Shown piece by piece: positions 3,565 to 40,970 of a stretch of 64,000 bases of DNA. A model generated the notes under the pieces. It ran no database searches and had not been told where the DNA came from. It was given only the letters and a program-made list of their open reading frames with translations. The stretch is from an uncultured Gammaproteobacteria bacterium (GTDB taxonomy: Bacteria > Patescibacteriota > Microgenomatia > Levybacterales > UBA12049). The stretch spans positions 23,740 through 87,739 of the forward strand of contig CAZCYO010000003.1 of NCBI GenBank assembly GCA_964503265.1. Direction: 5' to 3'. The translations under genes and the position numbers were made by a program. Each line of letters starts with the position of its first letter. Position 1 is the first letter of the stretch.

Positions 3565-4239
3565 TTAGTTAGTTATATTAGTTAACTGATCTTGAATAGA
3601 ATCAATTTTATTTTGGTCAGCATCTGTTGTAATGTATTTCATTCCGATAGTGTTATAGATAGGCCAGCGTTCGCCAAGTTCTTTTAGGAAATTGACGAGG
3701 TCGGCTTTCGTTTGGACGGAATCTAAATGATCGAGGACGAATTGGGAAGAAGCTTCTGAATCTTCAACCTCTATCTCTCCTTTATCGAGAGCTTCCATCA
3801 TCGCATCAGCTAAGTCTTTATAGAGACTTTCTCTATCTTCCGAAGGTATCTCTCCTAGAACTGAAGCTGGGGCAGGGGAAGTGGTTGCCTGTTCAGTTGG
3901 AGCTGTCGTCACTGCAGGTTCAGGGGCTGGAGAGGTGGAAACGGGGTCGGAAACAGGAGATGGTTGCATAGGAGATGGTATATCTGTCTGGACTGGAGGA
4001 GCGAATGTGTCAGACACAGCAGGTGTCATCGGGTCTGGGATAGCTGGGATGACACTTGGAGCAGGTGGGGTGACTGGATCAGGAGACGTCTCAGGGATCG
4101 TCGGCATAGGAGATGGAACAGTTGGAGTAGGAGTAGACCATGATGATGTCGGAACGACAGGAGTGTCTGTCTGAGGTACAGGTGGAGTAGGTGTGATTGA
4201 CGAATCAACAGAAACATCTGGAGCAGCATTAGAATCCAT
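3565..4239 (-). CDS. Pro/Thr/Ser-rich low-complexity protein with small C-terminal globular domain; unknown function
   Basis: 224-aa ORF 2 nt upstream of the large coiled-coil gene, so likely co-transcribed. The first ~130 aa are PT(S)-rich linker-like sequence. Confidence 0.45.
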   Translation of the reverse strand: MDSNAAPDVSVDSSITPTPPVPQTDTPVVPTSSWSTPTPTVPSPMPTIPETSPDPVTPPAPSVIPAIPDPMTPAVSDTFAPPVQTDIPSPMQPSPVSDPVSTSPAPEPAVTTAPTEQATTSPAPASVLGEIPSEDRESLYKDLADAMMEALDKGEIEVEDSEASSQFVLDHLDSVQTKADLVNFLKELGERWPIYNTIGMKYITTDADQNKIDSIQDQLTNITN

Positions 4240-4287
4240 ATATTAACAGTATGGGAAATCTGAAATGTTGTCAATACACGAGTCTTT

Positions 4288-4698
4288 TTAGCTTTGTTTT
4301 GCGACAGAAATCGCGCCTTCGACATTACCTGCTTTAATATGTGTCGCCATGGCTGATATTTTCCGTTGTCGTTCTTCTTCTTCTATCGGTCCGGCAAATT
4401 TTACGTACAGCGCTTTCGCCTCATCGTATCTAACACTCAGTGAATTAAGTTTTTGTACCAAATCATGTTTGTCCTTGAAGGGAAGGAGGGCAAGAAATTC
4501 TTGGGAAAGTTTTTGGGCTTCTTCAACGGTTAGCTTACTTGATTCTAAATTATCGATGATATGTGCTACCAAGTCTTTCTCAACCTCCTGAGTGAGTGGA
4601 TCTGTGTATGTAGAATCGTCCTGTCCAGACGGTGGCGTTGATGAGTTTTGTGGATCCATAATCGATTCTATCATTGCCAAAAAAGCGAGAAAAGTCAA
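4288..4698 (-). CDS. hypothetical protein (first gene of a 3-gene minus-strand islet)
   Basis: 136-aa ORF co-oriented with the two downstream genes. Start codon uncertain (alternative Met at MIESIMD). Confidence 0.4.
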   Translation of the reverse strand: MTFLAFLAMIESIMDPQNSSTPPSGQDDSTYTDPLTQEVEKDLVAHIIDNLESSKLTVEEAQKLSQEFLALLPFKDKHDLVQKLNSLSVRYDEAKALYVKFAGPIEEEERQRKISAMATHIKAGNVEGAISVAKQS

Positions 4699-5788: not shown

Positions 5789-6739
5789 ATGTCCGATCAA
5801 TCAGGAAAAGAGGGAGAGCAAGGAGCACATAACTTAGCTAAACAGCCAGATAGTAAGATTCCAGAAGCGTCGCAACCAGGAGAAAAGCAAGTAGATAATC
5901 TTCATGGCAGTCAAGAAGGCGAGAGTACTAATGAAGCAAGTATCTTAGCTCATGCACTTGATCCACTTGAAGTACTCGCATCTCCATTAGAAAGAGAAAA
6001 ATTACTGTATGTACTCTCAACTATTGGTCGTGCACAAGATGCTATAACAGCTGCCTTTCCACAGTTAGGAGGAGATTATCCGTATAAAGCCTTTATGAAG
6101 GTTGATCCAACTCTTAAAAAGCCTCACGCTAGTTTTCTAAATTACAGAGGAGTAAAAGTAATTGTTTTAGAAAGTCCTACAGATTACACATCGGATGGTT
6201 TTGGAGATGAGGTAGTAGCATCACCTTTTTCAGAAGAGACTCAGTATAAAAGGGATATAGTATCTCTTTATGCGATGCTTCACGAAGTGGGAGGACATCT
6301 GACGTATGACCATATCACAAATCCTGATAATCTTCCTACAACTCCAGACTATTACAATACTATTGATGCAGCAGTGAGTGAAGGATTTGCTGTTATGACA
6401 GAATTAGCAGTAGTAGATAAAATTATAAATGGAACAGTTCCAGGATTTACTGCAGAAGAAAGAGCTGCTTTGTCTCAACTACGAGCAGAAAGACTTAACA
6501 GTTCTTATCTAACCGGTCTTCATGCAAACGAAAACGCGTATGGAGAAGGGCATACTATCATGCAAAACGTGTATGAGAAAGGTGGTATGGATGGAGCGCT
6601 AGATTTTATAGGACAGTTAGATTCATACAAAACCAGAGGTGTTTCTCGTGGAGTACCTCACTATCGTCAATCACTTATTACTGGAGATTCAGAAGAATTT
6701 CTTGGCTTCTTTCAAAAACCTTCAGATGAAGAAGTATAA
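5789..6739 (+). CDS. hypothetical protein (contains HEVGGH, a non-canonical HExxxH motif)
   Basis: 316-aa ORF with an acidic, low-complexity N-terminus and no TM segment. MLHEVGGHLTYDH resembles a zincin motif but with the wrong spacing. Confidence 0.4.
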   Translation: MSDQSGKEGEQGAHNLAKQPDSKIPEASQPGEKQVDNLHGSQEGESTNEASILAHALDPLEVLASPLEREKLLYVLSTIGRAQDAITAAFPQLGGDYPYKAFMKVDPTLKKPHASFLNYRGVKVIVLESPTDYTSDGFGDEVVASPFSEETQYKRDIVSLYAMLHEVGGHLTYDHITNPDNLPTTPDYYNTIDAAVSEGFAVMTELAVVDKIINGTVPGFTAEERAALSQLRAERLNSSYLTGLHANENAYGEGHTIMQNVYEKGGMDGALDFIGQLDSYKTRGVSRGVPHYRQSLITGDSEEFLGFFQKPSDEEV

Positions 6740-11442: not shown

Positions 11443-11540
11443 GACTACGTTAGGGGCACCCTTCGCTACTATTTTCAAGCCATTTTTTTAGGAGTGTGGC
11501 CTGCCACTCCGTAGCTCATCCCGTTAGGGTATGAGCGAAG

Positions 11541-11970
11541 GGTGGAGATGTCCGGGAGCGATCCGGAGTCCGAAATATATTTTTAAAAACATCTACAAGC
11601 GTAGTCACAATTTATAGTGTCGTCTGAAACGTGTTCGAGTGACGGAATTTTTCAGACCTAGATCTCTTAATACCACGAAAGTCGAAATCAGTCTCTCTCG
11701 CTGTTTTCCTAACTGTTTTTAGGTCGTTACTTCCACGTTAGGGAGGAAGTAGGACTGTTCAAAGAGCTCGGGTCTTAAGCAGCAAGTGCGAAAGATTGAG
11801 GTGCGAATGCACCGTCAAAAGCGGATTGAACTCCGTCAGCTGCCTTGAGGGCGAATTGACGGACGCTGCGCATTGAGTCAGCATTTATTTTTTGATAATG
11901 TTTTACGACAACTTATCAATGTCGGCTTGCAGTTTTTAAAGAACGTAAATCGTCGAATCAAATCATCCCC
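11541..11970 (-). ncRNA. ssrA: tmRNA (SsrA), ~430 nt
   Basis: The 5' end, GGGGATGATTTGATTCGACGATTTACG, is near-identical to the canonical tmRNA 5' end GGGGCUGAUUCUGGAUUCGACGGGAUUUGCG. The 3' end reads GGAC-TCCGG-ATCGCTC-CCGGA-CATCTCC-A-CC, and the acceptor GGGGATG/CATCTCC includes the G3:U70 alanine identity pair. An internal reading frame ends ...GCA CTT GCT GCT TAA (…FALAA*), the typical tag terminus. The gene lies immediately downstream of smpB. Confidence 0.8.
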
Positions 11971-29469: not shown

Positions 29470-29515
29470 CTTTGATATAGATAGTGACAATTGACGCTAG
29501 ACTAGTAGTGTCTTA
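29470..29515 (+). promoter_or_regulatory. candidate tandem NrdR boxes upstream of nrdR-nrdJ
   Basis: TTGATATAGATAGTGACAA and GACTAGTAGTGTC resemble the NrdR-box palindrome acaCwAtATaTwGtgt. Match is partial. Confidence 0.3.
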
Positions 29516-29608
29516 TGATTTTCTTATCACTACATACAGTGACTGCTCAGCAATCTTTGGCAGGAAGATGAGTACGACGGACTAAGAAGAAGGGAAGAGT
29601 TAGTAATC

Positions 29609-32624: not shown

Positions 32625-32800
32625 GTGTTGGAAAAGTATAGGAAATCACGATGAAATTTCGTGACTGTGCCGCAACTGTGAAAGTCAGAAAACTATACTT
32701 AAGTCGTTTCATTCCCGAGCAGGAGTATTCAAGTATAGTAATCTTGTAATCCTTCTTAGGAATTGTTTTTTCTAAAGAAGGATTTTTTGTAAGAATTCTC
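32625..32800 (+). promoter_or_regulatory. cobalamin riboswitch-like leader (compact variant) with intrinsic terminator, upstream of pduO-type gene
   Basis: GGAAATCACGATGAAATTTCGTGACTGTGCCGCAACTGTGAAAGTCAGAAAAC contains the CCGCaACUGU core and an AGUCAG B12-box-like element. Followed by the terminator TCCTTCTTAG...CTAAAGAAGGATTTTTT (32757-32797). Confidence 0.5.
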
Positions 32801-32840: not shown

Positions 32841-33410
32841 ATGCCAATTTATACAAAAACAGGAGATCGTGGCCAAACCTCACTTATGGGTGGAGTTCGC
32901 ACGTCAAAATCAAGCTTACGTGTCGAGACATACGGTACTGTCGATGAACTGAATAGTATTGTTGGCGTGGTTATTGCACATTTACCCGCTAAAAACACAC
33001 CATTTGAGGAAGCCCTTGAAGCGATTCAGCATGATTTACTTGAAATCGGTGCAAGCCTGGCAAATCCACAATCAGCTCCATTAACATATTTATTTGATCG
33101 AGTAACAGAGTTTGAAAAAATGATTGATGAATTTACGACAAATCTTCCTGAACTAACTCATTTTATTTTGCCAGGTGGAGGCGTGACAGGTGCATCGCTT
33201 CATCACGCACGTACGATTTGTCGCCGACTTGAACGAGTGCTTGTACGACTTCAAGACAAAGAGCCTATTGATGCAACGATTGTGATGTATGTTAATAGGT
33301 TATCTGACCTCTTTTTCACTATGGCGCGATTTACGAATCATCTGACAGGAGAAAAAGAAACAGTATGGATCTCACGAAAACAATCTATTACTAGTAAAAA
33401 AAGTAAATAA
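32841..33410 (+). CDS. PduO-type ATP:cob(I)alamin adenosyltransferase
   Basis: MPIYTKTGDRGQTSLMGG...RVETYGTVDELNS matches the PduO/MMAB N-terminal signature. Confidence 0.85.
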   Translation: MPIYTKTGDRGQTSLMGGVRTSKSSLRVETYGTVDELNSIVGVVIAHLPAKNTPFEEALEAIQHDLLEIGASLANPQSAPLTYLFDRVTEFEKMIDEFTTNLPELTHFILPGGGVTGASLHHARTICRRLERVLVRLQDKEPIDATIVMYVNRLSDLFFTMARFTNHLTGEKETVWISRKQSITSKKSK

Positions 33411-33414
33411 CCTG

Positions 33415-33550
33415 GTGAATCTGGTGTAATTCCAGAACTGTGCCGCAACTGTGAAGTCCCGATCTCTATCGGGAATAAGTCAGATCCCGATGTGAATCTT
33501 CCGAGCAGAAGTAGATTTTTCTACACTCCTTGGAAGCAAGGAGTTTTTTT
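33415..33550 (+). promoter_or_regulatory. cobalamin riboswitch (core GGUG.AA.UCC...GCCGCAACUGU...AGUCAG) with terminator/SD-sequestering hairpin
   Basis: CTGGTGAATCTGGTGTAATTCCAGAACTGTGCCGCAACTGTGAAGTCCCGATCTCTATCGGGAATAAGTCAGATCCCG. Expression platform CTCCTTG-GAAG-CAAGGAG + TTTTTTT ends 1 nt before the ATG, and the AAGGAG Shine-Dalgarno lies inside the hairpin. Confidence 0.6.
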
Positions 33551-34912
33551 ATGCCTGTAGAAGTATTACAACAATTATCCGAAGCAGAACGAGTAAGTCC
33601 ATCAAAGATAAAAACAGATGAGGCACATGATTTTCTTGGAGAAAAAAAGCAGCAACCATATCTTCAAAAACAAGATATGTATGAATCTGAAGTTATAAAG
33701 GTGCAACCAAAGACACTTAAAGAATATGTTGCGTTTTTTGATAAAGAAATGCGGTCATCGGAGCTACCCTGGTATACGTTAGATAATAAAGTTGGATTTA
33801 GTATGAAATCACAAATGCAATTACTTGATATGAAAGATACGTCTTCTGTGGATAGATGGGCTGTTCAAACCAAACAAGATTTACTTGGGTTTTGTCTCGA
33901 ATATTTATCAGATAAGTTAGTCTATCCGTATAAATATGAAGAGGTAACATTACCAAATGGCGAAGCATCTCTTCGTGATACAAAATATGGTAAAGACATT
34001 CTTGAAACGACATCAGCTAAAGAACGAAATGGAAGTGTACTTGATGCACTTAAAGAAGTAAAAACGTTTTTTGTTAGGGAGGCTGGAGATACAGAAAAGC
34101 CATCAGGGAAAGCTGAGCAATCTATTGCTGTTATGTGTAGTCCTCTTGGACCAAGTGGGCTTGAAACAGATAATGGAGAATCGATTCATTACCCTGATTC
34201 GTATTGGTTTATTTTTGAAAGAAAAGGAAAGGAAATTCGGGGTGTTACGATACGAACGGATTTTACGATAACAGAATGTCGTGAAGCTTTGCGTATGTTA
34301 ACAGGAAAAGTTCTTCCCGAAGGTTCACTTCTTGAAGATTATGCGAGAGCTTTGACATGTATCCCTGGCGAAAAACAAAAAACCGCATTTGATATTGTTG
34401 ATACATTACGACAAGCTCGGGCACATGTGACAGAAAATACGAAAACTGTATTTGGTGATAAAAAATGGGACGAAGTTATATCCGACATGAAACAAGGGCA
34501 ATCACTCTATGAATTTAACGATAAGACTAAAGATGTCATAAAAGAATTTGAAGAGTATGTTACGACGAACCAGCTTTCACAGTTAGACATTCAAAAAGCA
34601 CTTGCTGCCACATTCTTACGACTTTCAAAGCTGTTTATCCTGTCAGAAGAAGATCAGGAATCGCTTACTGAAAATGGCGAGTTATTTGAGGAAATTCTTA
34701 CTCGAGTAGCATCAATTCCTGGATGTGCGGGTGGAGGCGGTGGAGTGACCGCTGTTGAATCTGCGGGTGGAATTCGGTTAGGAATGTTACAAGAAAAAAC
34801 ACTTAAATGTAAAGAATGCCCGTTATGTAAAGAGAAAGATATTGTTGCTACCATTTCAAATGGAAAAATAACCTGCCCAAAATGTGGCAAGTCTGCTCCG
34901 TATGATTGCTAG
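33551..34912 (+). CDS. hypothetical protein with C-terminal CxxC...CxxC zinc ribbon; riboswitch-controlled
   Basis: I chose the start at MPVEVL, after the riboswitch terminator. The C-terminus is GGGGG linker then CKECPLC...CPKCGK. No other motif recognised. Confidence 0.45.
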   Translation: MPVEVLQQLSEAERVSPSKIKTDEAHDFLGEKKQQPYLQKQDMYESEVIKVQPKTLKEYVAFFDKEMRSSELPWYTLDNKVGFSMKSQMQLLDMKDTSSVDRWAVQTKQDLLGFCLEYLSDKLVYPYKYEEVTLPNGEASLRDTKYGKDILETTSAKERNGSVLDALKEVKTFFVREAGDTEKPSGKAEQSIAVMCSPLGPSGLETDNGESIHYPDSYWFIFERKGKEIRGVTIRTDFTITECREALRMLTGKVLPEGSLLEDYARALTCIPGEKQKTAFDIVDTLRQARAHVTENTKTVFGDKKWDEVISDMKQGQSLYEFNDKTKDVIKEFEEYVTTNQLSQLDIQKALAATFLRLSKLFILSEEDQESLTENGELFEEILTRVASIPGCAGGGGGVTAVESAGGIRLGMLQEKTLKCKECPLCKEKDIVATISNGKITCPKCGKSAPYDC

Positions 34913-34961
34913 GAAGGAGGGATTCATTGTTTGAAGGCAGCGGCCGTGATAAGATAACATT

Positions 34962-35480
34962 ATGGATAATACTGCTCAAAACCAAGCTCAAACAGTACCA
35001 GTTGCGTCTCAGCCCTCCCAACCGGTGACGCCTGTTGCTCAGCCACAAGCAGAATCAATTACTCAGCCAGTAGCGCTTGATCAACCCCAGACACAGGTTC
35101 AAGCGACTCCTATAGCTCCTGTTAGTCTTCCGCATCGTGAAGCAGGACCTGGACTTGGACGAATGAATGAACTTATGATGCCGAGTGAGGTTGCGCCTGT
35201 ACTTTCAGCTGAAGTAAAAGCAGCAGGAGTTGAGGTGTCTGCAGACCGTGAGCAACCAGTTGTTCCAGCAGACGTGGCTCAGGCTGGTGTTCAGCCTGCT
35301 AAAGCTGCAGTCCCAATGCACACTGTAACAGGATCAAACGTACAATATATTACGAATGCACCATTTGGTCCTGAAGAAGCAATAAAATTCGAAAAATCGA
35401 CACGAGCTTCTGATAGTATACGGTGGCTCGCAACTTTTTTATTGAGACAAGTAAAAAAAGTAGCGATTTTTGGAAAATAA
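34962..35480 (+). CDS. Pro/Gln/Ala-rich low-complexity protein, unknown function
   Basis: 172 aa. Overlaps the start of the downstream ATPase gene by 11 nt. Confidence 0.35.
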   Translation: MDNTAQNQAQTVPVASQPSQPVTPVAQPQAESITQPVALDQPQTQVQATPIAPVSLPHREAGPGLGRMNELMMPSEVAPVLSAEVKAAGVEVSADREQPVVPADVAQAGVQPAKAAVPMHTVTGSNVQYITNAPFGPEEAIKFEKSTRASDSIRWLATFLLRQVKKVAIFGK

Positions 35481-37857
35481 TATGGAAAGTGTCATTAGCT
35501 CATCTCAAACATTTATGTTGGCTCTTTTTATAGGAGTTATTGTGATTGGGATACTGCTGTTACTAGGGTATGGGTTAGGATATTTCTTGCTGTTATGGTT
35601 TCGTAATAGAAAACGCGAGTCGGACTCTCTTAATTCCACACTGTTACAAGTGGCAGTCTCACGCGATAATGAAGTTAAAATCGATGCCGCAGAGCAACTA
35701 TTTACGAGCCTTGCATCGATTCGGAAAACAAATAAAATGGCATATTTTGGTGCTCAGCCACATATTTCATTTGAAATTGTCGGTACTCCTGGAGACATAC
35801 GATTTTATGTCAATGTTCCAAATAAATTACGTGACTTTGTGGAAAAGCAGATTAATGGAGCCTACCCTGATGCCGATATCATGCCAGTCTCAGATCCAGC
35901 TGCAAAACAGCGAGCAAATAATATTTTAGGGAGTGAATATAATATTTTTTCTGAGAAGGGGAAAGTGGCGTTTGCCTCGCTTTATCTAAAAGGCGCACCG
36001 TATATGCCAATTAAGGTGTTTAAAGATTTTCCTGTTGATCCATTAGCATCTATTACGTCTATTTTGGCGAAAATGAGCGAGGGGGAGGGAGCTGCAATTC
36101 AAATCTTAATACGCCCTGCAGATCCTAAATGGAGAAGTATAGGTAAAAGTTATATTTCAAAAACAAAAAAAGGTGAAGCTAATCCTGAAACAGCTAAATA
36201 CTCAACAGATGCAAAAGAAATGGAAGGGGTGGAAAATAAAACCAATAAAGCTGGGTTTGATTGTACCGTTCGACTTGTTGTCTCAAGTAGTTCTCACGAG
36301 GCAGCAGAAGCACATTTATCAAATATGGTGCAAGCGTACAGTCAATATAACGGAGCAAATTCATTTAAGAAAAATAAACACCGCTTTTTTAAAGGAAGTT
36401 TCATCACTGACTTTATTTATCGTTATTTTCCACTTTTTGGACATACGTCGCTTCTTAATAGTGAAGAGTTGGCGACACTGTTCCATTTTCCAAATAAAAG
36501 TATTACCACTCCTGGTATTTACTGGGTAACATCAAAACGTTCTCCTGCACCTGCGAATATTCCAACTGATGGTTTATATTTAGGAAAAAGTACCTACCGG
36601 GGTATTTCACGTCCAATTCATATTTCAGATGACGATAGACGTCGACACATGTACATCATCGGAAAGACTGGAACTGGTAAGTCAGAATTTCTGAAACAAA
36701 TGATTATGCAGGATATTAAAAATGGAAAAGGACTAGCTGTGATTGATCCTCATGGAGATTTAGTCGAGGATGTTCTTCAGATGATGCCACCAGAACGTGC
36801 CGAAGACGTTATTCTTTTTGATCCAGCAGACACGTCTCGCCCGATGAGTTTAAACATGCTTGAGGCAGAGACAGAGGAACAGAAGCACTATGTTGTATCA
36901 TCTCTGATTGGACTGATGTATAAATTATTTGATCCGAATAAAACTGGTATCATCGGTCCACGATTTGAGCATGCGATTCGAAATGCGATGTTAACAGTTA
37001 TGTACGCAAAAGGCAGTACTCTTATTGAACTTGTCCGCGCCCTCACAGACCAAGCCTTTGTCCAAGAAATTTTGCCACTTGTCGATGATCCAATTATCAG
37101 ACGTTACTGGACTGATCAAATCGCACAAACGTCAGATTTTCATAAATCAGAAGTACTTGATTACATTGTGTCCAAATTTGGCCGTTTTGTTACGAATAAA
37201 ATGATTCGAAATATCATCGGGCAGTCAGATAGTTCATTTAACTTTAGAAAAGTAATGGATGAAGGAAAAATCATTCTCGTTAACTTATCAAAAGGAAAAA
37301 TTGGAGAAGAGAACTCAAGTTTCTTAGGGTTAGTGCTTGTGCCAAAGATTTTAACTGCAGCGATGAGTCGACAGAATATCCCACAGTCAGAACGCCGGGA
37401 TTTTTATCTCTATGTGGATGAGTTTCAGAATTTTGCGACACCTGATTTCGCACAGATTCTATCTGAGGCTCGAAAATATCGCTTGAATCTTATCGTTGCG
37501 AATCAGTTTATTGGACAAATGGATGAAGAAGTGAAAAATGCTATTTTTGGAAATGTAGGAACAATCGCGTCATTTCGTGTCGGCGTTACTGATGCAAATT
37601 ATATTCAGCACGAATTCCAACCGACGTTTAGTGAAGCAGATTTAATTAATGTTGATCGTTTTAATTGCTACATGAAGACACTCGTGAACGGTGAACCAGC
37701 ACCACCATTCTCACTTGATACGACCAAAAACATTGAAGAAGAGAAGAAATTGATGAATCCACGGGTCGCAGAACTCGTTAAAGAGCTTTCAAAATTAAAA
37801 TATGGCCGTGATGTCCATCTCGTTGAAGCAGAGATTACTCAACGTGCGAAGCTCTAA
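35470..37857 (+). CDS. membrane-anchored FtsK/HerA-superfamily ATPase, VirB4/VirD4 (type IV secretion / DNA-uptake)-like
   Basis: N-terminal TM hairpin. Walker A YIIGKTGTGKSEF at about aa 397, Walker B LYVDEFQNFAT, and a conserved C-terminal block ANQFIGQMD. Confidence 0.55.
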   Translation: MENNMESVISSSQTFMLALFIGVIVIGILLLLGYGLGYFLLLWFRNRKRESDSLNSTLLQVAVSRDNEVKIDAAEQLFTSLASIRKTNKMAYFGAQPHISFEIVGTPGDIRFYVNVPNKLRDFVEKQINGAYPDADIMPVSDPAAKQRANNILGSEYNIFSEKGKVAFASLYLKGAPYMPIKVFKDFPVDPLASITSILAKMSEGEGAAIQILIRPADPKWRSIGKSYISKTKKGEANPETAKYSTDAKEMEGVENKTNKAGFDCTVRLVVSSSSHEAAEAHLSNMVQAYSQYNGANSFKKNKHRFFKGSFITDFIYRYFPLFGHTSLLNSEELATLFHFPNKSITTPGIYWVTSKRSPAPANIPTDGLYLGKSTYRGISRPIHISDDDRRRHMYIIGKTGTGKSEFLKQMIMQDIKNGKGLAVIDPHGDLVEDVLQMMPPERAEDVILFDPADTSRPMSLNMLEAETEEQKHYVVSSLIGLMYKLFDPNKTGIIGPRFEHAIRNAMLTVMYAKGSTLIELVRALTDQAFVQEILPLVDDPIIRRYWTDQIAQTSDFHKSEVLDYIVSKFGRFVTNKMIRNIIGQSDSSFNFRKVMDEGKIILVNLSKGKIGEENSSFLGLVLVPKILTAAMSRQNIPQSERRDFYLYVDEFQNFATPDFAQILSEARKYRLNLIVANQFIGQMDEEVKNAIFGNVGTIASFRVGVTDANYIQHEFQPTFSEADLINVDRFNCYMKTLVNGEPAPPFSLDTTKNIEEEKKLMNPRVAELVKELSKLKYGRDVHLVEAEITQRAKL

Positions 37858-37901
37858 TTCCTTCTTTTTCGTTCTTTTTTTTGCTACAATCAAACTCATT
37901 C

Positions 37902-37975
37902 GGGTGTGTAGCTCAGTGGTAGAGCGCGACTCTTATAAAGTCGATGTCCTTGGTCCGATCCCAAGCACACCCACC
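37902..37975 (+). tRNA. tRNA-Ile (anticodon UAU by hand folding)
   Basis: GGGTGTG-TA-GCTC-AGTGGTA-GAGC-G-CGACT-CTTATAA-AGTCG-ATGTC-CTTGG-TCCGATC-CCAAG-CACACCC-A-CC. All stems are Watson-Crick. Positions 34-36 read TAT. Confidence 0.65.
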
Positions 37976-40067: not shown

Positions 40068-40970
40068 TTACAGTTCTGACAGGTGACTTGTGTCTTTTGC
40101 TCGGTCTTTTACAAATTCCAGATAGCGTTCAGTTGTTGAAATTCTTTTATGTCCTAAAATCTTTGAAAGAAGGACGAGTGAAACTCCATGTTTTAAATGA
40201 TGTGCGACGAATGTATGTCGAAGATCGTTTACTTTTGCATTTTCGATTTCAGCAAGTCTAAAATATCGTTCAATTGCGGTTCTAATATTTCGAACGAGGA
40301 ACGGTTTGCCTGATTTGGTAACGAAAATATGATTATCTGTTACTTGTGGACGACCTTTGAGATAGCGGCTAAGCGCTTCTTTAGCTGAACGATTAAGTGG
40401 AACGACTCGTTCTTCATGTTTTTCCATTGGGCGAATTCGAAGCGTTTCACCTTCGATATCTGTTAAACGAAGTTCGGCGAGTTCTCCAATTCTAATTCCT
40501 GTTTGAAGAAGTAGTTCGATAATAGCAAACATTCTTGGATCATTTCGTGCAGCGTCTCTAAGTGCTCGATATTCTGTCGGTTTAAGGATTCGTGGAGGAG
40601 CTAGTTCGTATTTTGGATGAGAAACAAGAAGCGATGGATCGTCAGTAATAATTTCATTTACTTTTAGATAACGATAAAAAGTACGTGTTGAGTTCAATTT
40701 ACGAGAAACTGACTTAGGAGTATATCCTTTATCTGCCATTGTTGCTAAAAAGGCTTGAAGATCTTCCGTTTTAACATCATGAACATTATGCTTTTCAAGC
40801 TCAGAAAGAAAAGAACTTAACTGCTCTATATCTTTTCCATATGCTAGAATAGTAGCACTGGAGTGCTTCTTGCTTTTTAAAAAGTCAATAAATTTTGCGT
40901 GCGCGTCTCGAATTTTGATCGGTTCTGACATACTATATCCCATAATATCAATAAATTCATGATTCGTCAA
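40068..40970 (-). CDS. tyrosine recombinase XerC/XerD family
   Basis: N-terminal SAM-like core-binding domain. C-terminal R...HTFVAHHL...GH..ISTTERYL with catalytic Tyr. Confidence 0.8.
   Translation of the reverse strand: MTNHEFIDIMGYSMSEPIKIRDAHAKFIDFLKSKKHSSATILAYGKDIEQLSSFLSELEKHNVHDVKTEDLQAFLATMADKGYTPKSVSRKLNSTRTFYRYLKVNEIITDDPSLLVSHPKYELAPPRILKPTEYRALRDAARNDPRMFAIIELLLQTGIRIGELAELRLTDIEGETLRIRPMEKHEERVVPLNRSAKEALSRYLKGRPQVTDNHIFVTKSGKPFLVRNIRTAIERYFRLAEIENAKVNDLRHTFVAHHLKHGVSLVLLSKILGHKRISTTERYLEFVKDRAKDTSHLSEL

Follow-up and report, generated by a model that had tools for sequence, protein, structure and literature searches.

Time and again, new vitamin transporters and enzymes have been discovered by way of genes that stand behind riboswitches. 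For cobalamin (B12) riboswitches, the known regulon classes are transport, biosynthesis and B12-independent isozymes, and in other bacteria metE and nrdAB/nrdDG are among the genes found behind them. Here we describe a locus within 64,000 nucleotides of contig CAZCYO010000003.1 (assembly GCA_964503265.1, placed by GTDB in the Levybacterales of the Patescibacteriota), in which a predicted cobalamin riboswitch precedes a gene for a protein of an unannotated family. This whole stretch is referred to as the 64-kb window and all coordinates are positions in it, unless one of the related loci that we compared (L-numbers) is named. The leader in question sits at the 3' end of pduO, which encodes an adenosyltransferase, and the three genes 3' of it are labelled geneA, geneB and geneC. 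Our literature search found no paper on the geneA protein, on DUF6580, a family encoded in related loci, or on cobalamin riboswitches in Patescibacteria, the candidate phyla radiation (CPR).

The explanation that we favour as a whole, to which we assign a probability of roughly 60%, is that the leader works as a genuine cobalamin OFF switch, that its target is geneA, that geneB and geneC are separate from it, and, with low confidence for this last part, that geneA takes part in corrinoid salvage. What is new is the regulated protein family, which is uncharacterised and unmatched in fold; the riboswitch class and the ATPase superfamily to which geneC belongs are known.

A cobalamin riboswitch in front of geneA

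The elements that make up the switch and its target are the following:

33405..33511, + strand: riboswitch 2, aptamer and conserved CUUCCGAGCAGAAG regulatory module (RF01482 36.7 bits, Rfam alignment 33388-33523; model R1 88.6 bits; ortholog covariation)
33498..33536, + strand: antiterminator, CUUCCGAG (33498-33505) paired with CUUGGAAG (33529-33536), with a small hairpin (33511-33524) inside (computed fold)
33525..33550, + strand: terminator hairpin (33525-33544) that also sequesters the Shine-Dalgarno (SD) sequence AAGGAG (33538-33543), plus seven U (sequence, terminator scan, fold; stem kept in 12 aligned leaders)
33551..34912, + strand: geneA, encoding a soluble protein of 453 aa with a C-terminal zinc ribbon, from a family without annotation (profile, structure model, hydropathy)

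The leader carries the B12-box core GGUGUAAUUCC...GCCGCAACUGU...AAGUCAG, with GCCGCAACUGU at 33442 and AGUCAG 36 nt 3' of it. These positions are invariant in 12 orthologous leaders, and the core was found 5' of geneA in every geneA-homolog locus collected. The 12 geneA-proximal leaders align well from the aptamer through a near-invariant CUUCCGAGCAGAAG block, the small hairpin, the terminator/SD hairpin and the U-run to the ATG, in genomes whose geneA proteins are just 26-44% identical to that of the window. From 10 orthologous leaders, with the window's own left out, we built a covariance model (R1) that produced exactly two matches over the 64-kb window, the geneA leader (33405-33511, 88.6 bits, rough E 8.6e-23) and the pduO leader. 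The former aligns to the model over its full length, scores mid-range among the orthologs (78-117 bits) and retains all nearly invariant positions of the family. When a cobalamin-type structure (P3, P4, P5, P6, P6 extension and regulatory hairpin) is laid over the 10 orthologs, 91% of the pairs are canonical, compared with 38-49% when the partners are slid against each other, and compensatory changes occur at 11 pairs; none of 500 shuffles attained the covariation score. The orthologous leader in L002 passes an Rfam cobalamin model as it stands (RF01689, 43.4 bits against a gathering threshold of 36.5). Because R1 finds the leader and its orthologs covary, we assign it, on comparative sequence evidence, as a bona fide member of an orthologous family of cobalamin riboswitches in Levybacteria-type Patescibacteria. 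The Rfam family places it in the adenosylcobalamin (AdoCbl) class, and its ligand may be AdoCbl, hydroxo- or methylcobalamin. A near-invariant CUUC-CGAGCA-GAAG hairpin occupies the position expected of P13/L13; it is too constant for covariation, and no convincing loop pairing between L5 and L13 could be assigned. In L006, the P6-extension hairpin CCCCGAUUCAAUCGGGG is repeated identically between aptamer and regulatory module (5888-5904 and 5932-5948), and L007 is similar.

The expression platform is built around the hairpin ACUCCUUG-GAAG-CAAGGAGU, also found by the terminator scan, which is followed by seven U at 33544-33550 and directly by the ATG at 33551, and which holds the SD in its 3' arm. 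An alternative, antiterminating fold (33490-33537) has a computed energy of -16.0 kcal/mol (z -3.67, equalled by 0 of 200 shuffles), and the CUUGGAAG stretch that it engages takes up the terminator's 5' arm together with its loop, so that in the computed folds the two structures are mutually exclusive. All 12 aligned leaders preserve the terminator, the complementary strands and the layout of the platform. The small hairpin at 33511-33524, which lies outside the formally tested pairs, covaries by eye (GUAGA/UCUAC, GUAUA/UAUAC, GCAUA/UAUGC, GCAA/UUGC). In L022, the CCGAGCAGGAG module doubles as the SD, lying 5 nt 5' of the ATG, which marks it as the riboswitch's regulatory hairpin. Going by how cobalamin riboswitches are known to work, we infer that bound AdoCbl holds the CUUCCGAGCAGAAG module as a hairpin of its own, probably P13/L13 docking on the aptamer; the antiterminator would then not form, the terminator would, and geneA would be neither transcribed nor translated. 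With AdoCbl scarce, CUUCCGAG would pair with CUUGGAAG and geneA would be made.

The gene upstream has a switch of its own, and the window thus shows two switches in series, in the order switch 1, pduO, switch 2, geneA:

32626..32703, + strand: riboswitch 1, aptamer of AdoCbl-II type, 5' of pduO (RF01689 52.8 bits against gathering 36.5; model R1 51.8 bits at 32632-32725)
32712..32795, + strand: expression platform of riboswitch 1, CCGAGCAGGAG module followed by a long hairpin and U-run, terminator-like (sequence; minimum free energy fold)
32841..33410, + strand: pduO, PduO-type ATP:cob(I)alamin adenosyltransferase (PF01923 9.9e-57; TIGR00636 187.9 bits against cutoff 108.45)

The layout of the pduO leader is the same, with a minimum free energy hairpin AAUCCUUCUUAGGAA...UUUCUAAAGAAGGAUU that runs into UUUUUUG. 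Much of this had been proposed in an initial annotation made from the letters alone. The riboswitch core that it read at 33415-33550 is present there, and the sequence, the terminator scan and the alternative folds, the latter as computed, all agree with its description of a B12 OFF switch with a hairpin, seven U and a buried AAGGAG. Its B12 theme of nrdJ, nrdR and a PduO-type adenosyltransferase likewise holds, since nrdJ scores 577.6 bits with TIGR02504 (cutoff 399.95), pduO matches TIGR00636 and PF01923, and nrdR was confirmed as well. The riboswitch-like leader that it saw before pduO is recognised above threshold by RF01689, so that, of the two leaders it had proposed for a covariance-model scan, this one passes and the geneA leader stays below gathering, though with a local E of 1.5e-5.

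geneA is the predicted target of riboswitch 2

All 19 distinct loci positive for the geneA hidden Markov model have a cobalamin riboswitch 5' of geneA, which bears out the proposed link of homologs of the first gene to B12 riboswitches elsewhere. In 15 of them (the window, L002, L004, L006-L008, L010-L012, L016-L018 and L022-L024) a dedicated switch stands directly before geneA; in the other four (L001, L013, L014, L015) it is shared with pduO and precedes an abutting pduO(-transporter)-geneA operon. L002, L008, L011 and L012 carry a riboswitch on geneA only and none on pduO. The pair of geneA and riboswitch is also kept away from the usual neighbours, in L004 among glycosyltransferases and a Replic_Relax gene and in L022 beside VIT1, EncFtn and Fur genes, both with no nrdJ or pduO nearby, and in L024, where the adenosyltransferase is of CobA type instead of PduO type. 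From these loci we identify geneA as the specific, predicted target of riboswitch 2. The L024 enzyme (3802-4335, CobA/CobO/BtuR-type) lies next to nrdJ and is a non-orthologous replacement of the PduO-type enzyme in the same island.

Sister loci carry further genes behind cobalamin riboswitches, which encode DUF4430 (transcobalamin-like) and DUF6580 proteins (L006 2087-5283, L007 4348-5289, L021 3247-4187, L023 4365-5278 and L024 4557-5779; one DUF4430 is fused to a prenyltransferase-like barrel) and are probably a corrinoid uptake system. Because of these additional switch-controlled genes, we regard the region as a B12 island, adjoining nrdR and nrdJ, the latter encoding a class II ribonucleotide reductase (RNR). 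A tblastn search of the 64-kb window for DUF4430 and DUF6580 homologs found none.

The geneA protein family

The geneA product has no membrane segment (maximum 19-residue hydropathy 1.10) and, read from the ATG at 33551, is identical to database protein P0001. Its family comprises 378 representative clusters in a full-library profile search, with the 150 listed mostly full-length at about 400-580 aa, plus fragments; the family profile recognises the protein of the window at 4.0e-139. Searches of Pfam, NCBIfam and PHROG returned nothing beyond a weak zinc-ribbon signal, a profile search against PDB sequences returned zinc ribbons only, and a Foldseek search of the AlphaFold2 model (mean predicted local distance difference test, pLDDT, 79.8; predicted template-modelling score, pTM, 0.74) against PDB and BFVD gave nothing at E <= 1e-3. 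Comparison with the known B12-regulon classes (BtuB, BtuFCD, ECF-CbrT and BtuM; cob/cbi; MetE, NrdAB and NrdDG; PduO, CobA and EutT) showed no homology in sequence or fold, in agreement with the initial description of a 460-aa protein recognisable only by its C-terminal CxxC-CxxC zinc ribbon and not a known B12 target.

The model is a confident one; in it, the N-terminus is disordered and a PGCAGGG loop is flexible. This loop is one of the family motifs, together with ERNG, SPxGxxGL and the C-terminal CxxC...CxxC zinc ribbon, which ends in Cys in many members. Invariant are E117-Y118, E158-R159-x-G161, S197, F238, G391-C392-A393-G394-G395 and the distal zinc-ribbon pair C442/C445; P198, G200, G203, D207, G209, Y214, R244 and the proximal pair C423/C426 are nearly so (>=90%). 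Across the same genomes, identities are 22-43% for geneA, 48-60% for pduO, 58-75% for nrdJ and 64-77% for geneC, and by this measure geneA is estimated to evolve much faster than its neighbours. A word-indexed search returned at least 7941 matches for geneC and 61 for geneA, numbers that are not comparable given the far greater divergence of geneA and that were not used as evidence.

Several loci have a mini-ORF (open reading frame) of about 47-50 aa, rich in Cys (CxxC...CxxCGW...CPxCGW), directly 3' of geneA (L004 7332-7484, L006 7402-7545, L023 7644-7793; also L011, L012, L013 and L016). There is none in the window, and in P0039 and P0058 it is seemingly fused to the C-terminus of geneA. In L013 (4842-6342), a frameshift divides geneA between two overlapping ORFs, and the gene is a possible pseudogene or assembly error. 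We considered and dropped the idea that geneA or geneB comes from a phage or a defence system, with no PHROG match and no BFVD fold match (no PADLOC search was made).

The position behind the switch is occupied by geneA in most, but not all, relatives. In L020, L021, L025 and L029 the slot holds remote geneA relatives (hhalign probability 92.6%, E 4.7e-7 over the core), which share the C-terminal Cys module at E 1e-10 to 1e-13 and all follow dedicated riboswitches. L037 and L044 encode one family (E 6e-85 between the two) with hydrophobic C-terminal segments, and L035 and L019 again other proteins. We had noticed by eye a likeness in motifs between the L037/L044 proteins and geneA; hhalign gave a probability of just 2.4%, and we claim no homology. 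These slot proteins (L035 5541-7337, L037 572-2587, L044 6705-8552, L019 5299-6366) are large, unannotated and encoded after pduO; Pfam gave no annotation for them (for L019, according to the existing record, which lists no Pfam family). From this pattern, the switch is predicted to gate a variable, fast-evolving slot of which the geneA superfamily is the commonest occupant.

geneB and geneC form a unit of their own

The features 3' of geneA are:

34927..34955, + strand: geneB-geneC promoter, -35-like TTGTTT (34927-34932), 17-nt spacer and extended -10 TGATAAGAT (34947-34955) (conserved across loci)
34962..35480, + strand: geneB, 172 aa, Pro/Gln-rich disordered N-terminus and conserved C-terminal part (alignment of 13 loci)
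35482..37857, + strand, alternative TTG start at 35470: geneC, membrane-anchored VirD4/TraD-like ATPase of the FtsK/HerA superfamily with a DUF8128 N-terminal domain (Pfam matches, transmembrane helix)
37902..37975, + strand: tRNA-Ile, anticodon UAU (ARAGORN; Rfam tRNA 68.4 bits)

The assignment of geneC as a membrane-anchored FtsK/HerA-superfamily ATPase, first made from its letters, is upheld by matches to PF10412 (TrwB_AAD_bind, 39.1 bits against 20.5), PF12696 (TraG-D_C, 25.2 against 22) and PF01935 (DUF87), by a Walker A motif in mid-protein and by an N-terminal transmembrane helix at residues 11-29; the identical database protein, P0193, carries PF26449. Against NCBIfam equivalogs it remains far below threshold (best TIGR03743, 51.2 bits where 366 are required). 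For geneB, searches of Pfam, NCBIfam and PHROG returned no match. The ORF layout originally given stands; two start codons change, with geneA likely to begin at ATG 33551 (453 aa) and not at TTG 33530, and geneC probably at ATG 35482 (791 aa), the start shared with P0193.

Of 13 loci, 11 have geneB and geneC -1 to +7 nt apart (1 nt in the window); the exceptions are L008 with 36 nt and L015 with 45 nt. An extended -10 motif (TGnTAnnnT) ends 5-9 nt before the geneB ATG across loci, often with TTGTTT 17 nt 5' of it; in the window, the distance from the end of TGATAAGAT to the ATG is 6 nt. Of 13 geneA-seeded loci 12 carry the motif, as do 14 of 17 independent geneC-seeded loci, compared with 0 of 80 control stretches. 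Because the -10 element abuts the geneB start codon, the pair would have a separate and probably leaderless or near-leaderless transcript. The same near-leaderless layout of geneB is seen in L002, L006, L010-L013, L015, L016, L019-L021, L025, L027, L029, L030 and others.

The distribution of the pair is separate as well. Other genes intervene between geneA and geneB-geneC in L006, L013 and L016, and geneC is missing downstream of geneA in L004, L014 and L022. We also collected 80 metagenomic loci seeded with geneC (41-79% identity), 30 of them with at least 4.5 kb of upstream sequence. The geneA profile matched none of the 80 apart from a weak match in L029, with positive controls at 1e-31 to 1e-167. 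In half of the 30 loci, the flank is free of nrdR, nrdJ and pduO; 11 have pduO, and in seven of these pduO is followed by geneB-geneC with no cobalamin riboswitch (by R1 or Rfam) and no geneA-type protein. The order of geneA, small ORF and geneC behind the switch, which had been suggested as a check, does recur, but geneB-geneC also occurs without geneA and without riboswitch. We conclude that geneB-geneC is a putative independent, self-promoted unit and a neighbour of geneA only by lineage-wide synteny.

geneC is constantly accompanied by geneB, tRNA-Ile(UAU), a Xer-like recombinase (40068-40970, - strand, in the window) and then, in relatives, a DivIC-type gene. A tRNA follows geneC in at least 10 loci (L002, with UAU visible, L008, L011, L012, L015, L016, L039, L050, L051 and L090); a tRNA-Ile with a UAU anticodon is unusual for bacteria. 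The strong conservation of geneC and its constant chromosomal neighbours suggest a housekeeping role. No relaxase, VirB4 or other type IV secretion system (T4SS) gene was found near geneC in the window neighbourhood and about 20 inspected loci. Group I introns lie a few kb 3' of geneC in L008 (12938-13127), L051 (18010-18308) and L068 (15432-15689).

Other features of the window and its relatives

A consensus search for NrdR boxes near geneA, geneB and geneC gave 4 matches against 4.6 expected, none of them in the locus. Two imperfect palindromes about 30 nt apart, GACUAGUAGUGUC and UCACUACAUACAGUGA (29498-29545), lie 5' of nrdR and are possible NrdR boxes missed by the standard consensus. The nrdJ gene of L008 (1455-5039) contains a LAGLIDADG intein-type insertion. 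On the - strand of the window, the transfer-messenger RNA (tmRNA) gene (11540-11970, 105.8 bits) carries, compared with the Rfam consensus, about 70 extra nt, inserted shortly after the tag-coding part begins.

Alternative explanations

The initial annotation proposed that the riboswitch gates a geneA-geneB-geneC operon for corrinoid acquisition or remodelling, with the membrane ATPase as its energiser. The three genes are on the same strand with gaps of 49 and 1 nt and no terminator found between them, their order recurs in many loci, and the window lacks the DUF4430/DUF6580 uptake genes of its sister loci, which leaves room for another importer. This proposal is nevertheless contradicted by geneB's own conserved promoter, which abuts its ATG, and is largely refuted by distribution, namely the seven riboswitch-free nrdJ-pduO loci, the 15 of 30 with no nrd or pduO neighbours, and the loci in which geneA lacks geneC or is parted from it by inserted genes; the gap between 64-77% identity for geneC and 22-43% for geneA also fits a co-evolving complex poorly, and we hold such a machine to be very unlikely. 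Still more improbable, in our view, is that the window leader is a decayed, non-functional riboswitch copy whose hairpin and U-run merely serve as a constitutive terminator of pduO. Its score below the Rfam gathering threshold, a mismatch in the closing helix and a T-run that abuts the start codon would fit decay, but the near-invariant positions are all retained, the R1 score is mid-range among orthologs, the 12 aligned loci all keep the antiterminator complementarity and the layout of the platform, and a constitutive terminator that buries the SD would silence a 453-aa ORF that is intact and conserved, an outcome hard to square with a maintained reading frame.

Two other explanations accept the switch and differ on its cargo. 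One makes it mainly a conditional terminator of the nrd-pduO transcript, with a hypervariable accessory slot behind it whose cargo, geneA included, may have nothing to do with B12. The variety of proteins in the slot (geneA itself, the remote geneA-like type, the L037/L044 family and those of L035 and L019) and the rapid evolution and patchy occurrence of geneA among close relatives speak for it; it appears decidedly improbable given that geneA keeps its cobalamin riboswitch far from nrdJ and pduO (L004, L022) and next to another type of adenosyltransferase (L024), and that loss of the riboswitch coincides with loss of the slot gene, which argues that the switch exists for its cargo and not for terminating pduO. 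The other, which we consider unlikely, takes geneA as a B12-independent substitute for a function that needs AdoCbl, the obvious candidate being the supply of deoxyribonucleotides, with expression turned on by a lack of AdoCbl. Several loci have riboswitch control of geneA only and not of pduO, as would fit a need under scarcity only; geneA adjoins nrdR-nrdJ, and NrdJ is the only B12 enzyme seen here; the invariant polar residues and Cys suggest an enzyme; and the Cys-ending zinc ribbon bears a superficial likeness to the redox tail of NrdJ from this genome. We pursued this as far as a B12-independent RNR, with the Gly-rich loop and zinc ribbon likened to class III RNR and the Cys-rich tail to NrdJ, and rejected it: the AlphaFold2 model has no RNR-like barrel and matches neither RNR nor any other PDB enzyme, Pfam and NCBIfam give no match, the geneA profile does not match the NrdJ ORFs in the same loci, and the motif order differs from that of NrdD. 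Nor is a radical-SAM activase or small subunit encoded nearby, and in L001, L014 and L015 geneA is co-transcribed with pduO, a salvage gene.

A possible role of geneA in corrinoid salvage

The favoured explanation, a cobalamin OFF switch on geneA in the service of corrinoid salvage, has several observations to contend with. At gathering thresholds, the whole-window Rfam scan reports only one cobalamin riboswitch, RF01689 before pduO, and even a sensitive scan of 33380-33600 gives the geneA leader 36.7 bits with RF01482 (AdoCbl) against a gathering threshold of 50 (local E 1.5e-5), so that a plain Rfam scan would not call it. Its P3 helix contains one non-canonical pair, and the P6 extension, which bears on the ligand class, is present in some orthologous leaders and missing from others. 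As no terminator was found in the 49-nt gap between geneA and geneB, transcription in the window may read through into geneB-geneC. On the side of the cargo, slot proteins in some relatives (L035, L037/L044) show no demonstrable relation to geneA; geneA is missing from close relatives in which nrdJ and pduO are retained, which makes it accessory and not essential; and it has no recognisable B12-binding motif and no likeness to known B12 proteins.

We nonetheless lean, tentatively and with low confidence, towards a protein that prepares or hands on scavenged corrinoid, a role that we infer from its being cytoplasmic and often co-transcribed with an adenosyltransferase, and from its invariant Cys loop next to a zinc ribbon. 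The coordination of cobalt by Cys is a known device in B12 trafficking proteins. geneA would be needed only under AdoCbl scarcity and would either convert scavenged corrinoids into a substrate of the adenosyltransferase or hand the cofactor to NrdJ, acting through the invariant Cys on the flexible Gly-rich loop beside the zinc ribbon. Together with its remote relatives it could possibly represent an unrecognised class of cytoplasmic B12-handling proteins, corrinoid-processing enzymes or delivery chaperones, made when AdoCbl is scarce. Judging from the locus and not from a whole-genome survey, the organisms that carry geneA appear to depend on scavenged B12 for their DNA precursors, as a class II RNR is encoded in the same locus. 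The cobalamin riboswitch points consistently to one unannotated family with many invariant polar residues, and if geneA does act on corrinoids, it would add a new step or solution to B12 salvage, between corrinoid uptake and adenosylation, in ultra-small Patescibacteria with the essential class II RNR NrdJ as their only visible B12 enzyme, and would help to explain the dependence of reduced-genome bacteria on partners. The picture of the locus is corrected in any case, with the VirD4-like ATPase placed outside the B12 unit, in a very conserved two-gene pair of interest in itself.

Comparison with known systems

With the type IV coupling proteins VirD4, TraD, TraG and TrwB, geneC shares the N-terminal anchor, the Walker A motif and the TrwB_AAD_bind/DUF87/T4SS-DNA_transf/TraG-D_C domains; it differs in its DUF8128 N-terminal domain, in scoring below the equivalog cutoffs and in its fixed chromosomal place, unlike a conjugative element. 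geneA resembles the riboswitch-guided B12 uptake genes (DUF4430 and the S-component-like DUF6580) in lying in the same B12 island with a cobalamin riboswitch in front, but its product has no membrane segment or signal peptide and is unrelated in sequence, and it usually has its own separate riboswitch. As a functional analogy only, BtuM and the human CblC/CblD share with geneA the proposed step between uptake and adenosylation and an invariant Cys able to ligate cobalt; geneA has no similarity to them in sequence or fold and, unlike the membrane protein BtuM, is soluble.

The leader itself has in common with the cobalamin riboswitches of clan CL00101 (RF00174, RF01482, RF01689) the B12-box core GCCGCAACUGU...AGUCAG, covarying P3-P6 junction helices, a regulatory hairpin after the aptamer, an OFF logic that combines termination with SD sequestration, and a place before B12-related genes. 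It departs from them in that the window copy falls below the RF01482 gathering threshold, that its orthologs occur with and without a P6 extension, that it contains the near-invariant CUUCCGAGCAGAAG module, and that two switches follow each other in series, on pduO and then on geneA, the second regulating a gene outside the known classes of the B12 regulon.

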